Source of the DNA: Escherichia coli
GTDB taxonomy: Bacteria; Pseudomonadota; Gammaproteobacteria; Enterobacterales; Enterobacteriaceae
DNA: 64,000 bases
NCBI RefSeq assembly: GCF_013315695.1
Contig: NZ_CP054353.1
Reading direction: 5' to 3' (one strand)
In this document: piece by piece, positions 6,008 through 15,382 of the stretch
How the letters are laid out: each line of letters begins with the position of its first letter
How positions within the stretch are numbered: position 1 is the first letter of the stretch
Notes under the pieces: generated by a model
What the model was told of the DNA's origin: nothing
Database searches by the model: none
The model's input: the letters and a program-made list of their open reading frames with translations, nothing else
Program-made: the position numbers and the translations under genes

Positions 6008-7090
6008 TTAGAACTGATAAACCAGACCTACAGCGACGATGTCGTCGGTATCAATACCAGCTGTTTTGGTAAACTTACTATCGTCAATTAAGTTGATTTT
6101 GTAATCAACAAAAGTGGACATGTTTTTATTAAAGTAGTAAGTAGCACCGACATCGACATACTTGACTAAGTCTCGGTCACCATGAACACCAAGGTCTTTA
6201 CCTTTTGACTGAAGGTAAGCAACAGATGGACGCAGACCGAAGTCAAACTGATATTGTGCTACTGCTTCAAAGTTTTGTGCTTTGTTTGCAATATGGTTAT
6301 TACCAAAAACGGTCATATTCTGAGTTTCAGAATATGTGGTAGCCAGATAGATATTGTTCGCATCATATTTCAGGCCTGCAGCCCATACTTCCGCATTTTT
6401 GCCGGAGGCATTGAATTTGCTCTTACCATAGGCGACCTGACCGTCAGTGCGATCTGATTTAGCATAGGTTGCACCCACGCCGAATCCTTCATACTCATAA
6501 GTAGTGGAGAAACCGAAACCATCACCATTGGCTTCAGTTACGTCAGTGCGGTCATTTTTACCCTGATACTGAGCAGCAAAGTTCAGGCCATCGACCAGAC
6601 CAAAGAAGTCGTTGTTACGATAAGTTGCAACACCAGTAGTGCGACCAGTCATGAACACATCTGTTTGGGTCCAGGTATCACCACCGAATTCTGGCAGGAC
6701 GTCAGTCCACGCACCGATGTCGTATGCTACACCGTAGTTACGGCCGTAATCGATTGAGCCGTAATCACCAAATTTCAGGCCTGCAAATGCAAGACGGGTT
6801 TTGTCTTTGGAAGAACCTTGAGATTCAGCACGGTTGCCTTTGAATTCATATTCCCACTGACCGAAACCAGTCAGTTGATCGTTGATTTGGGTTTCACCTT
6901 TGAAGCCAAGACGGGCATAAGTAGTATCACCATCATCTGCATCATTAGAGGAGAAGTAGTGCTTGGCATTAACTTTCCCGTATAGATCCAGCTTGTTACT
7001 GTCTTTATTATAAATTTCAGCTGCCTGAGCAGACATCGCCATCAGTACTGATGCAGCTACAGCAGAAATTGCCACTGTTAATTTTTTCAT
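6008..7090 (-). CDS. nmpC: Prophage-encoded general porin (NmpC/OmpD family)
   Basis: Signal peptide [23 protein letters not shown], porin beta-barrel, C-terminal ..VAVGLVYQF; uninterrupted. Confidence 0.8.
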
Positions 7091-7516
7091 TGTACGCCCT
7101 TTTTTTGAACTATTATTAAAAAATGATGTCACTGCGCGATAAATATTCATCTAATCAATGCGATTATTTCAAGATGTAAGTTTTAGTTTCTCATTTAATT
7201 TGTGAAGTAGATCTCTATTTTTATCTAAACCTTTTCTATCTAATCCTATTCATGGCTCTTGTTTGAACGAAAATAAATCTATTAGCTAATTTATATTAAT
7301 GGCACTTATTTATAAGCGATCTATAATTCTTTAGCTTAATTTAAACAAGCTAAAAATAACATCGGAAATTATTCATTGGTTATTTGTTGAAGTTTTCTTA
7401 TGTATTTGTGGTGGTGTTTTGAACACTCGGTGGCATTCTCACAAATATCATTTAGTAGTTTACGTACGTAAAAAATTGGTTATGCTGTTAAGAGTGGTTA
7501 CTTCGTCACACAGCTT

Positions 7517-7678: not shown

Positions 7679-7894
7679 ATGAAATCCATGGATAAGTTAA
7701 CAACGGGTGTCGCCTATGGCACCTCAGCAGGTAGTGCCGGATACTGGTTTTTACAGCTGCTAGATAAAGTCACGCCCTCACAGTGGGCGGCAATTGGAGT
7801 GCTGGGTAGCCTGGTATTTGGCCTGCTGACGTACCTGACAAACCTTTATTTCAAGATTAAAGAAGATAAGCGCAAGGCTGCGAGAGGTGGATAA
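7679..7894 (+). CDS. Holin (phage-21 S-type pinholin)
   Basis: 71-aa two-TM protein ..[44 protein letters not shown].. Confidence 0.8.
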
Positions 7895-8391
7895 TGCCTC
7901 CATCATTACGAAAAGCTGTTGCTGCTGCTATTGGTGGCGGGGCTATTGCTATAGCATCTGTGTTAATCACTGGCCCAAGTGGTAACGATGGTCTGGAAGG
8001 TGTGAGACATAATCCTTACAAAGACATAGTTGGTGTATGGACTGTATGTTACGGGCATACAGGAAAAGACATCATTCCCGGTAAAACGTATACCGAAGCA
8101 GAGTGCAAAGCCCTCCTGAATAAAGACCTTGCCACTGTCGCCAGACAAATTAACCCGTACATCAAAGTCGATATACCGGAAACAACGCGCGGCGCTCTTT
8201 ACTCGTTCGTCTACAACGTGGGTGCTGGCAATTTCAGAACATCGACGCTTCTTCGCAAAATCAACCAGGGCGATATCAAAGGCGCATGTGACCAGCTACG
8301 TCGCTGGACATACGCTGGCGGTAAGCAATGGAAAGGGCTGATGACTCGCCGTGAGATTGAGCGTGAAGTCTGTTTGTGGGGGCAGCAATGA
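7894..8391 (+). CDS. SAR endolysin (lysozyme)
   Basis: N-terminal signal-anchor-release segment ([20 protein letters not shown]) followed by a lysozyme domain; ATGA coupling to the holin. Confidence 0.8.
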
Positions 8392-8825
8392 GCAGGTTAA
8401 CCGCGATTATCTCCGCTCTGGTTATCTGCATCATCGTCTGTCTGTCATGGGCTGTTAATCATTACCGTGATAACGCCATTACCTATAAAGAACAGCGCGA
8501 TAAAGCCACGTACATCATCGCTGACATGCAGAAGCGTCAACGTGACGTAGCAGAACTCGATGCCAGATATACAAAGGAGCTTGCTGATGCTAACGCGACT
8601 ATCGAAAGTCTCCGTGCTGATGTTTCTGCTGGGCGTAAGCGCCTGCAAGTCGCCGCCACCTGTGCAAAGTCAACGACCGGAGCCAGCGGCATGGGCGATG
8701 GAGAAAGCCCAGGACTTACAGCAGATGCTGAACTCAATTATTACCGTCTCCGAAGTGGAATCGACAAGATAACCGCGCAGGTTAACTACCTGCAGGAATA
8801 CATCAGGACGCAATGCCTGAAATAA
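8376..8825 (+). CDS. Rz inner-membrane spanin
   Basis: 149-aa product with N-terminal TM then coiled coil, overlapping the endolysin end. Confidence 0.75.
8587..8772 (+). CDS. Rz1 outer-membrane lipoprotein spanin (embedded in Rz, +1 frame)
   Basis: Lipobox ..LLGVSAC then proline-rich [11 protein letters not shown]; AAGGAG RBS upstream. Confidence 0.7.
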
Positions 8826-8885
8826 TTTTTTTGCAAATCACAAAGTCAATTTAATGAGCCTCGCGATGCGGGGCTTTTTGCAATA

Positions 8886-8912
8886 AATGCGTACCGCAAC
8901 GCATGTTTTTTA
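8886..8912 (+). terminator. Rho-independent terminator after the lysis cassette
   Basis: atgcgt-accgca-acgcat followed by gttttttta. Confidence 0.45.
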
Positions 8913-9026
8913 CACCGAACCTGCCCCTTTGGAATGGGCCTTTGAGGATACCAGTTAGTGCTGGCGAGCCTCGGTGGGCTGGTTTCCTGTGCGGCAAAGG
9001 TTCATTTCAAAGAGTAGGTACACGCT

Positions 9027-9524
9027 ATGAAATCATTAACCCTCTTCAATCAACCAATTCGTATCGGTGAAGATGGCATGATCTGCCTCACTGATATGTG
9101 GAAAGCCAGTGGTAAAAGTGAATCTGAATCGCCTTACCACTACCTGCGAAACAAGCAGACCAAAGAGTTCTTAGCCGAGCTGGAGAAAAACCACGAATCT
9201 GTGGTTTTTACTGAGCGCGGTGTACACGGTGGAACATATGGCGGGAAGTTTGTTGCTTACGATTATGCGGCTTGGTTAAACCCCGGGTTCAAGTACGCGG
9301 CCTATAAAGTCCTCGATGACTACTTCACCGGAGAACTTCAGCATCGCAACAGCTTAAGTGCGCAGCTCAACATGAAATGTCATGAGTTTGACCAGAAGAA
9401 AGACATGGCGAGCTTCTGCGGACAAGGGCTGGCAGCATGGCGCTATACGAAGCCAGTGTTGGTCGCTGAGATTAACTCCCTGGCTAACCAGCTGCAGATT
9501 ACGATCCCCGGGCTTCCGGGATGA
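9027..9524 (+). CDS. KilA-N domain protein (165 aa)
   Basis: KilA-N signature (GMICLTDMWKASGK..YHYLRNKQTKEFLAEL..GTYGGKFVAYDYAAWLNPGF). Confidence 0.6.
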   Translation: MKSLTLFNQPIRIGEDGMICLTDMWKASGKSESESPYHYLRNKQTKEFLAELEKNHESVVFTERGVHGGTYGGKFVAYDYAAWLNPGFKYAAYKVLDDYFTGELQHRNSLSAQLNMKCHEFDQKKDMASFCGQGLAAWRYTKPVLVAEINSLANQLQITIPGLPG

Positions 9525-9778
9525 GTGATCGTGTTATTGAATGCGCCTCCAGAGCGGGGCGCGACTTCTCAGAGTTCATGAAAGGCGAGAAGGGCATGAT
9601 GGAAGCATTGGCCTCGGTGGATGAGTTTGGCGAGCAGCTGCGCCTCAACGGCTGTGTCAATCATCACTTTGTTAGCTACATGATGCGGAACTCGATCATG
9701 CAGGCATTCATGGACATGGCAAAAGCCGAGAGGAAAGAAGAGCGCCGGCGTAAGCGAGCGGAAGCAAAAGCGAAGTAG
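9521..9778 (+). CDS. Hypothetical 85-aa protein with strongly basic C-terminal tail
   Basis: ATGA overlap with the KilA-N gene; ends ..AKAERKEERRRKRAEAKAK. Confidence 0.45.
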   Translation: MSDRVIECASRAGRDFSEFMKGEKGMMEALASVDEFGEQLRLNGCVNHHFVSYMMRNSIMQAFMDMAKAERKEERRRKRAEAKAK

Positions 9779-10064
9779 CCATTACAAAGCCTATCTACGG
9801 GTGGGCTTGATAATGGCTTATACCCTACACGGGATAACTTAACTGATATCCCTTTTAAAGGATAAAGGTATTCAAGCCTGACACATCATGCGCTGTATCG
9901 TCGCCGTGTTCCCGTATTAACAGAGACCGTAGCCCGACGGGGAACTCCTTCTGCGCGAGTGTGCGGGAATAATCAAAAACGATGCACACCGGGGTTACCG
10001 GGTACACATATTTCATCATGCCAGCGAGTCCGGTTCTGGCACGGAAGAAACCGGACGTTATGAT

Positions 10065-10491
10065 TTAGTGCGGAAATATTTGTGTAGTGTTCTGAATGTT
10101 CTCAGTAAAGAGTAATGAATTATCAAAGGTATAGTAATACCTTTTGTTTTCGTGGATATTTGTAATCCATCTGAAAACCCCTGCTGTAGCAAGATTTTTC
10201 CTGTATTCGTAAAATGATAACTCTCCTGATTTGAATCCTTTTAAGGTGGCTTCTATAAGGCATTTATTTTTTTGAAAATCTTACATTTACAACCTTACCC
10301 TGTCCTTTTATTAAAACCGTATTATCGTTTTCAAGAACAAGATGAATATTCTCTGTGGCTAAATAGTAAATGTAATGTGAGACATTGTGACGTTTTAGTT
10401 CAGAATAAAACCAGTGATAGTTTAAATTATTTCGCACTTTATCGAATATTTGTTTAAAAATGGCAACCTGAGCCATTGTAGTACCTTCCAT
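10065..10491 (-). pseudogene. AT-rich moron gene (lambda orf-78-like as recalled), split by a 1-nt frameshift at a homopolymer tract
   Basis: 75-aa N-terminal ORF ends at a stop inside an A7 run (T7 on + strand, 10267-10273); a ~68-codon C-terminal continuation is open in the adjacent frame to 10065. Confidence 0.45.
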
Positions 10492-11155: not shown

Positions 11156-11675
11156 ATGGAAGTCAACAAAAAGCAGCTGGCTGACATTTTCGGTGCGAGT
11201 ATCCGTACCATTCAGAACTGGCAGGAACAGGGAATGCCCGTTCTGCGAGGCGGTGGCAAGGGTAATGAGGTGCTTTATGACTCTGCCGCCGTCATAAAAT
11301 GGTATGCCGAAAGGGATGCTGAAATTGAGAACGAAAAGCTGCGCCGGGAGGTTGAAGAACTGCGGCAGGCCAGCGAGGCAGATCTCCAGCCAGGGACTAT
11401 TGAGTACGAACGCCACCGACTTACGCGTGCGCAGGCCGACGCACAGGAACTGAAGAATGCCAGAGACTCCGCTGAAGTGGTGGAAACCGCATTCTGTACT
11501 TTCGTGTTGTCGCGGATCGCAGGTGAAATTGCCAGTATTCTCGACGGGATCCCCCTGTCGGTGCAGCGGCGTTTTCCGGAACTGGAAAACCGACATGTTG
11601 ATTTCCTGAAACGGGATATCATCAAAGCCATGAACAAAGCAGCCGCGCTGGATGAACTGATACCGGGGTTGCTGA

Positions 11676-11701
<26 letters not shown>
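11156..11701 (+). CDS. nu1: Terminase small subunit
   Basis: 181-aa product MEVNKKQLADIFGASIRTIQNWQEQGMPVL..., lambda Nu1. Confidence 0.9.

Positions 11702-15382
<3,681 letters not shown>

Follow-up and report, generated by a model that had tools for sequence, protein, structure and literature searches.

A pair of overlapping open reading frames (ORFs) in the late region of an Escherichia coli prophage raises the question of whether they are the two parts of one broken or frameshifted gene or a module of two genes, and of how such genes are expressed from the slot in which phage lambda carries bor. The pair lies within a 64,000-nucleotide stretch of contig NZ_CP054353.1 (assembly GCF_013315695.1), which is referred to here as the window and is numbered from its first letter. 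A sequence-only reading of the window had described a 165-aa KilA-N domain protein (ORF1) and, overlapping it by ATGA, an 85-aa protein with a strongly basic tail (ORF2), and had put forward both of these possibilities. We find that ORF1 and ORF2 are separate and conserved genes, and that they follow a structured leader RNA which also precedes many unrelated phage genes. The pair itself has been sequenced and annotated before, as hkbK/hkbL. What is new is the evidence for a stable two-gene unit, the probable placement of ORF2 in the Bro network through relatives fused to a T5orf172 domain, and a leader RNA family, a further case of a known mode of control, that sequesters the Shine–Dalgarno (SD) sequence by means of an unusual pseudoknotted architecture and has a 'portable' use.

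The Bro network, a concept said to go back to Iyer, Koonin and Aravind in 2002, includes genes with KilA-N, Rha, Bro-N, ANT and T5orf172 domains, which are among the commonest unexplained genes of temperate phages, Shiga-toxin (Stx) phages included. The leader precedes accessory genes in the textbook phages HK97, HK022 and HK620 and in Stx phages. It gives experimenters a way into the question of how phages set the dose of accessory proteins that are harmful, and may find use as a portable gate for translation.

Two genes or one divided gene

ORF1 (9027-9524, plus strand) has an ATG start and encodes a 165-aa KilA-N and ORF11CD3 domain protein of the hkbK family, while ORF2 (9521-9778, plus strand) encodes an 85-aa protein of the hkbL family (phrog_875) with a basic C-terminal tail. 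These positions agree with the sequence-only reading, as does the ATGA at 9521-9524, in which the start codon of ORF2 overlaps the TGA stop codon of ORF1. ORF2 occupies the -1 frame relative to ORF1, and this frame is open only from 9488 (there is a TAA at 9485-9487). Such an arrangement would suit a single gene, either split by mutation or joined by programmed -1 frameshifting within 9488-9524 to give an antirepressor-like protein of ~250 aa. The combined size is likewise that of Bro-network proteins of 240-270 aa, and the phrog_129 profile has a length of 273, of which ORF1 covers positions 3-174.

Several lines of evidence nevertheless make this single-gene explanation very improbable. Relatives of ORF2 nearly all stand alone at 83-87 aa; an exhaustive phmmer search of 1.84 billion representative proteins returned only 21 ORF2 matches, none longer than 113 aa up to an E-value of 1e-5, and two word-indexed searches (with a single sequence and with a profile) of 5.8 billion clustered proteins found no genuine fusion of ORF1 with ORF2. 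The few longer forms of ORF2 (P0001, P0135) are singletons whose extra sequence is frameshift-type junk, and where an ORF2-like domain is fused in other phages, its partner is T5orf172 and not KilA-N. The relatives of ORF1, which measure 165-189 aa, share a conserved C-terminus (...QLQITIPGLPG) that is kept as a terminus. A slippery heptamer (X XXY YYZ) in the ORF1 frame is absent from 9488-9524, and thus from the 33 nucleotides in which a -1 shift could fuse the frames, and a Klebsiella pair with 76/67% amino acid identity to ORF1/ORF2 keeps the ATGA overlap although the preceding nucleotides differ. Pairwise ratios of non-synonymous to synonymous substitution rates (dN/dS) were 0.02-0.20 for ORF1 and 0.04-0.16 for ORF2, with dS reaching >0.5. 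This purifying selection on both frames indicates that ORF1 and ORF2 are real genes and not chance ORFs. In combination, the lack of fusions, the low dN/dS, the conservation of termini and of the ATGA, and the absence of a slippery heptamer led us to reject a split or frameshifted gene and to retain the two-protein module, which had been the other proposal of the sequence-only reading. ORF2 is also found downstream of genes unrelated to ORF1.

ORF2 and its upstream partner, whatever that partner may be, invariably overlap by 4 nt or are separated by 2 nt, and ORF2 of the window has no SD sequence of its own; translational coupling is therefore the natural inference.

Over the 1071-nt region containing the pair, identity is 99.9% with phage PhiR49_1 and ~95.6% with Stx phages 1717, 2851 and related phages. 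Of 5426 complete E. coli genomes, 524 contain this region, 388 with a coverage of >=80% (about 7-10%), and the annotation pipeline PGAP places two genes there. Suspicion of a pseudogene or frameshift is thus lifted from a pair present in about one in ten complete E. coli genomes. The partners of ORF2 vary. A homologue with 85-97% identity over the aligned part follows a different KilA-N protein in HK97, mEp234 and relatives, and in metagenomic contigs and a Rouxiella genome ORF2 follows Rha and Rha+ANT proteins. At two loci (L008, L011) ORF2 stands after Rha proteins inside an immI-type region with Arc, Mnt and Ant, and in a Klebsiella phage the whole pair lies among the tail genes.

Two further occurrences of such genes were noted. 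A record labelled 'Actinobacillus phage vB_Apl-pPE4' (PP818812.1; L003, 1971-2566) carries a module 96% identical to E. coli ORF1, in which a deletion cuts ORF2 off after 22 residues; its host assignment or its assembly looks questionable. The prophage of E. coli strain Ecol_448 (L019), which has an identical pair, carries a second KilA-N gene (6597-7394, 265 aa) in the nin region before Q; the upstream region of the window differs from that of Ecol_448 and has no such plus-strand KilA-N ORF.

Domains and relatives of the two proteins

The KilA-N assignment held up in a hidden Markov model search, with residues 9-101 of ORF1 matching Pfam KilA-N (PF04383; E 1.8e-15; model positions 8-106 of 107). 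Residues 109-161 match Pfam ORF11CD3 (PF10549; E 4e-13; model positions 1-54 of 54), and these were the only two Pfam domains found in ORF1; P22_AR_N, P22_AR_C, ANT and AntA were matched by neither ORF1 nor ORF2. By analogy with its family, the KilA-N domain of ORF1 would be a DNA-binding domain of APSES-like fold. In PHROG, ORF1 matches phrog_129 and phrog_10441. A tblastn comparison gave 30% identity to P1 KilA over residues 17-127, and ORF11 of Pseudomonas phage D3 has the same architecture with 27% identity over 92% of the length. A sequence search of the PDB yielded no solved relative of ORF1.

ORF2 matches phrog_875 from end to end (85/85 positions, E 3e-54) and no family in Pfam or NCBIfam. 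The strongly basic tail noted from sequence is borne out, since the last 19 residues have an isoelectric point (pI) of 11, whereas the body of the protein is acidic (pI 5.2). An AlphaFold2 model consists of three helices (3-20, 26-42 and 48-84) with a mean predicted local distance difference test (pLDDT) score of 92.9. Foldseek searches with this model found nothing significant in the PDB or BFVD, a PDB sequence search was empty, and tblastn against phage records (E <= 10) brought no further distant relatives. Against AFDB50, however, Foldseek returned 'GIY-YIG nuclease family' proteins of ~165 aa (probability 1.0, template modelling score 0.70, 29% identity), in agreement with a match of ORF2 to phrog_4284 (E 4e-6). 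A putative zinc site (Cys8/Cys45/His48/His49) was considered and dropped, as Cys8 is not invariant (P0179).

A 161-aa protein encoded in the same slot as the pair provides the connection to the Bro network. Its residues 2-59 align with ORF2 (hhalign 94.9%, E 4.7e-8; also found by hmmsearch), and its residues 77-154 form a Pfam T5orf172/MUG113 domain. T5orf172 is a classic Bro-network domain. Because a domain homologous to ORF2 is fused to it, and given the adjacency of ORF2 to KilA-N, Rha and ANT proteins, ORF2 is best seen, on these sequence relationships, as a module of the Bro network that stands alone here, while a homologous domain is fused elsewhere. To this extent there is some truth in the idea of a divided gene, as ORF2 behaves like a domain that has become detached.

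A pseudoknotted leader RNA upstream of the pair

The ~200 nt between Rz and ORF1 were aligned with their counterparts in HK620, HK97, ST104, the Klebsiella phage and an Enterobacter prophage. Homology among these regions holds also where the genes downstream are unrelated, and their differences fall in complementary pairs. The leader RNA so defined by folding, a covariance model and covariation counts spans ~110 nt (8913-9019, plus strand). Its 5' strand 8913-8918 (CACCGA) pairs with 8971-8976 (TCGGTG) in a pseudoknot, and the adjoining 8919-8924 (ACCTGC) pairs with the SD region at 9014-9019 (GTAGGT), in which the SD is AGGU, 7 nt before the AUG. Within this basal helix are nested P3 (8927-8944 with 8995-9012), a helix of 18 bp, P4 (8945-8954 with 8979-8988) and a small hairpin, P5 (8960-8962 with 8967-8969), all on the plus strand.

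Besides the pseudoknot, the leader thus has four covarying helices, of which the basal one pairs with the only SD-like element. A 130-nt leader RNA has a minimum free energy (MFE) of -49.3 kcal/mol (z -3.66), with P3-P4 formed and the SD paired. Independent MFE folds of leader types A, B, D, F, G and I likewise contain P3-P4 and a paired SD-like AGGU/AAGG 7-11 nt before the AUG; in types B, D, F, G and I it is a CCUUU that pairs with an AAAGG SD sequence. A pattern search together with covariance model R1 located the leader in ~160 phage contigs, in at least nine sequence types that form the same helices. In the window, which was a training sequence of the model, R1 gives one match (8897-9029, 96 bits). 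Of the 5426 complete E. coli genomes, 953 (18%) contain a leader of type A, which PGAP leaves unannotated.

P4, P5 and the pseudoknot were first drawn by eye and then subjected to covariation counts. Among 37 distinct leader sequences, 31 of the 37 base pairs change on both sides. Standard pairs are formed in 83.7% of cells, as compared with 67.5% after shuffling (reached in 0/500 shuffles) and 38-55% with slid partners, and the covariation score is 0.457 as compared with 0.20 after shuffling (0/500) and at most 0.147 for slid partners. For the nested helices these values are favoured by an alignment that was fitted to the model. The pseudoknot was left out of the model and covaries by type all the same: its strands are CACCGA/TCGGTG in type A, CCAAGAG/CTCTTGG in types B and C, CGAGAG/CTCTCG in type D, CACAGAA/TTCTGTG in type E, CCAAAGA/TCTTTGG in type F and CACAGAG/CTCTGTG in type G. 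The presence of G-U pairs among the compensatory changes indicates that the structure is specific to the sense strand. RNAalifold, which is blind to pseudoknots, found P3 on six sequences and chose a local alternative over P4. Conserved unpaired nucleotides comprise a GGG before the 3' arm of P4 and a 6-7-nt GUG.GA bulge. No match was obtained in Rfam 15 (4227 families, including riboswitches, C4/isrK and ribozymes; E <= 1) for 8897-9029 or for six other leader types, and the leader was also absent from the literature searched; an earlier description elsewhere is possible. A literature search of limited coverage found no paper on hkbK/hkbL, PhiR49_1 or an RNA motif at this position.

Upstream of the leader, at the 5' edge of the cassette, lies an intrinsic terminator, T1 (8857-8879, plus strand), with a stem (8857-8875) formed by AGCCTCGC and GCGGGGCT around a GAT loop and followed by TTTTT. 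T1 has the GC-rich hairpin and U-run of a Rho-independent terminator, and a hairpin with a T-run occupies this position in all leader types, with stem sequences that differ and compensate. An automatic terminator scan listed neighbouring hairpins and not T1, whose T-run overlaps the stem. The scan and the alignments also identified a hairpin, H2 (8887-8911, plus strand; ATGCGTACCGCAACGCAT then GTTTTTT), which looks like a terminator in the type found in the window; other types have GCGCA..TGCGC without a T-run. No plus-strand promoter was predicted between Rz and ORF1, and neither a LexA box nor a sigma-70 promoter of its own was seen upstream of ORF1.

A short leader variant, type I (~106 nt), lacks P5 and was seen at L157 (5386-5491), L167 (1776-1881) and L144 (1500-1606). 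The proteins encoded behind it have 193-242 aa and begin MSEKIITLSGAATDVLYALFFRG; in L144 the gene lies directly before the Nu1 terminase gene. Two chromosomal loci, L007 (3396-3521) and L012 (3337-3481), have degraded ORF2 genes (P0189 and P0180, respectively). Their leaders are degraded too, the two strands of the pseudoknot being no longer complementary, which is consistent with joint decay of leader and ORF2 once the cassette is inactive.

Exchange of genes behind the leader

The leader precedes at least eight unrelated gene types. Besides KilA-N+ORF11CD3 genes with ORF2, as in the window, these are KilA-N+P63C genes with ORF2, other KilA-N variants, two kinds of Rha protein, a 188-aa protein that is Bro-N/antirepressor-like by eye only, HNH endonucleases, the ORF2-like/T5orf172 fusion and the proteins of 193-242 aa, which have no assigned family. 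This independence of the leader from the gene behind it makes autoregulation by one encoded protein unlikely and favours a generic cis-acting role.

The breakpoints of gene exchange are situated at the start codon and at a 3' sequence that the loci share. In the window this 3' edge of the exchangeable cassette is at 9779-9866 (plus strand) and begins CCATTACAAAGCCTATCTACGGGTGGGCTT. Megablast matches to HK620 and to Salmonella phages stop at ~9815-9866, and CATTACAAAGCCTATCTACGGGTGGGC is a 3' flank shared between ORF2 of the window and the ORF2-like/T5orf172 gene of locus L214. One contig (L024; IMGVR_UViG_3300045988_051161) contains three leader-gene modules in tandem, with leaders at 425-552, 1371-1503 and 2366-2491. 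A KilA-N+P63C gene in the first is followed by a remnant of ORF2 (junction bases only), the second holds KilA-N+ORF11CD3 with ORF2, and the third holds a further KilA-N variant. This suggests that the cassette can be duplicated or stacked.

A proposed late-operon cassette and competing explanations

The explanation that we prefer, in which our confidence is evenly balanced, is that a lambda-like prophage carries here, within its late operon, an accessory cassette complete in itself, composed of a terminator, a pseudoknotted leader and two translationally coupled Bro-network genes whose translation is throttled. Transcription of the cassette would be supplied by the Q-antiterminated late promoter. 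T1, together with H2 in the type found in the window, would stop unmodified polymerase and so keep the pair silent in the lysogen. By burying the SD, the leader would impose low translation on whichever gene follows, giving a low dose from a very abundant transcript, as might be required if DNA-binding or nuclease-type products are harmful in excess. P1 KilA, which kills the host, is a family precedent for such a product, and Henthorn and Friedman reportedly observed in 1995 that Rha of P22/phi80 blocks phage growth in IHF mutants. The nuclease-type genes found in this slot count as a precedent too. Termination and reinitiation would then make ORF2 in a fixed ratio to ORF1, with which it may form, as a second subunit, a DNA-binding regulator or antirepressor-like complex. 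Within this complex KilA-N would bind DNA, ORF11CD3 would serve for helical oligomerization and ORF2 would act as an adaptor with a nucleic-acid-binding tail. As to its task, the pair may be a regulator of antirepressor-like type, take part in a transaction on host or phage DNA, or be a selfish element.

A number of observations fit poorly with this cassette. Distant KilA-N+ORF11CD3 proteins (D3 ORF11, ST104 orf45) occur without ORF2, and the sequences of the ORF2 partners share no C-terminal domain, such that a specific interaction surface is not obvious. A physical complex is not supported computationally, as an AlphaFold model of ORF1 and ORF2 joined in a single chain by a Gly-Ser linker was poor (pLDDT 58; predicted template modelling score, pTM, 0.34), with low confidence in the KilA-N domain as well. 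In the leader, the pseudoknot and the conserved junction nucleotides exceed what simple occlusion of the SD would need. There may thus be a specific trigger, for which one could consider a ligand, a protein, or RNase III cutting the ~30-bp P3-P4 stack. Furthermore, one pseudoknot strand (X) is at the base of P3 and the other (X') in the apical loop of P4, and the stacked P3-P4 and the pseudoknot may be alternative states.

These features of the leader lend some weight to the possibility, which we regard as the less probable one, that it is a true switch: it might be a riboswitch, an operator bound by a protein, or a substrate of RNase III that exposes the ribosome-binding site once it is cleaved, as happens in the lambda N leader. 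A pseudoknotted fold with conserved unpaired GGG and GUG.GA nucleotides and a long, near-perfect helix of the length of an RNase III substrate would be expected of such an element, and its independence of the downstream gene argues for a host or general signal. On the other hand, all known riboswitch classes are included among the Rfam families that failed to match, and the lack of P5 in type I implies that part of the fold is dispensable. A bolder version, in which the leader is a new class of regulatory RNA, a pseudoknotted sensor (a riboswitch, or a switch gated by a protein or RNase) that serves lambda-like phages as a portable and universal gate for exchangeable and potentially toxic accessory genes of the late operon, and ORF2 is a detachable subunit that turns KilA-N, Rha and T5orf172 proteins to one task, appears more doubtful still.

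Functions other than that of a throttled late cassette can be envisaged for the proteins. An antirepressor module, made late or on induction and inactivating the repressor of its own or of a co-resident prophage in the manner of P22 Ant and the Gifsy antirepressors, would accord with the anti-repressor annotations of PHROG relatives of the ORF1 C-terminal part and of Rha genes in the same slot, with the immI-type setting of ORF2 at L008 and L011, and with the label of antirepressor given to the ORF1 homologue in the Klebsiella record. We consider this unlikely, as the annotations are by homology only, the LexA box or dedicated promoter looked for upstream of ORF1 was not seen, late expression falls after the lytic decision, and genes of nuclease type (HNH, T5orf172) are found in this slot behind the same leader. 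A role in defence or superinfection exclusion, like that of the KilA-N-containing abortive-infection protein BstA, is suggested by the slot, which is a typical position for a moron, and by a PADLOC match of ORF1 to the candidate system PDC-S22 (E 1e-8). This match is restricted to ~30 residues of the KilA-N core (residues 60-90), PADLOC gave no full-length defence-model match for ORF1, and its hit of ORF2 to QatB (E 0.02) is noise. Moreover, ORF1 lacks the C-terminal domain of BstA, and the late-operon orientation, terminator, buried SD and lack of a predicted promoter argue against expression in the lysogen, which leaves defence a decidedly improbable function.

Finally, the slot may be a landing pad into which selfish mobile genes (HNH, T5orf172/GIY-YIG and nuclease-related KilA-N/Bro genes) home, with the leader and the 3' edge serving as recombination or target flanks. 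Breakpoints situated exactly at the start codon and the shared 3' sequence, the finding of HNH and GIY-YIG-type genes in the slot, the three tandem modules of L024 and the domain swapping for which the Bro network is noted (PMC10111431) could all be accommodated in this way. The strand-specific G-U compensation signifies selection on RNA structure and not on DNA flanks alone, however, and homing would explain mobility while leaving the task of the KilA-N protein and ORF2 unaccounted for. As a full explanation this has a low likelihood, although it is compatible with the throttled late-operon cassette.

Comparison with known phage systems

The closest counterparts are hkbK/hkbL of HK620 (coding region ~97% identical, hkbK 96% identical to ORF1) and the pair in Stx phages 2851 and 1717, ECP1 and PhiR49_1. 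These are the same genes (ORF1 ~96% and ORF2 100% identical over the aligned part), with the same ATGA overlap and position after Rz. HK620 is P22-like and has a type D leader, whereas the prophage of the window has a lambda-like Nu1/A terminase and a type A leader; the fold is the same. The sequence-only reading had considered that homologues might prove to be independent conserved genes of known function: their independence is confirmed, whereas their function is given as 'unknown' in all records.

In HK97 (gp73 and HK97p61), as in mEp234, mEpX1/2 and HK022, a type C leader in the same slot is followed by a KilA-N protein and an ORF2 homologue, which in HK022 has 85% identity. HK97 gp73 (242 aa) is only 23% identical to ORF1, with P63C in place of ORF11CD3; its junction with ORF2 is TGAtcATG instead of ATGA, and ORF2 of HK97 itself is truncated to 77 aa. 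P1 KilA and D3 ORF11, the founders of the Pfam KilA-N and ORF11CD3 families, have no ORF2 homologue downstream. Like ORF1, D3 orf11 is embedded among late structural genes, while P1 kilA is under the C1 repressor and not in a late operon. Rha of P22/phi80 is a Bro-network gene in the late slot after the lysis genes, like the pair in the window, and its product harms phage growth in certain host backgrounds. Rha-family genes also sit behind the same leader RNA, differing from ORF1 in having Phage_pRha in place of KilA-N as the N-terminal domain; those behind the type D leader lack ORF2.

BstA resembles ORF1 in being prophage-borne with an N-terminal KilA-N-like DNA-binding domain (PMC8585504). 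It is, however, a single protein of ~307 aa with its own C-terminal domain, expressed in the lysogen from a position beside the repressor, in contrast to the 165-aa, late-operon-embedded ORF1. Among RNAs, the lambda N leader with its RNase III site and the P4 eta/kil leader with CI RNA are likewise structured leaders that control the translation of a potentially toxic regulatory gene and have a long helix that includes its ribosome-binding site, and the P4 leader lies at a Bro-network gene, as does that of the window. There is no sequence or Rfam relationship between them and the window leader (C4/isrK, no match), which unlike them combines a pseudoknot with three nested helices and is reused before many unrelated genes.

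Neighbouring genes

The slot is as the sequence-only reading had placed it. Genes for holin (7679-7894), lysozyme (7894-8391) and Rz (8376-8825) lie upstream of the pair, and downstream are two small minus-strand genes followed by Nu1 (11156-11701) and terminase A (11676-13601). A repeat scan of 8700-10300 found nothing meaningful. One minus-strand ORF of 75 aa (10264-10491) resembles by eye the N-terminal part of a DUF1398/YbcV gene of 136 aa, of which PhiR49_1 (L001, 5236-5646) and strain Ecol_448 (L019, 13039-13449) have intact copies; the copy in the window may be truncated. The interval from the Q antiterminator region to the lysis genes holds, in the window, a minus-strand gene (6008-7150) for a 380-aa porin of OmpC/NmpC type, a typical lysogenic-conversion moron whose close relatives are annotated OmpD or OmpC. 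In an Enterobacter prophage (L014), matches to the Rfam families isrJ (50 bits) and STnc100 (104 bits) at 1339-1417 and 1499-1694, respectively, fall just downstream of Q in the late-promoter leader region.

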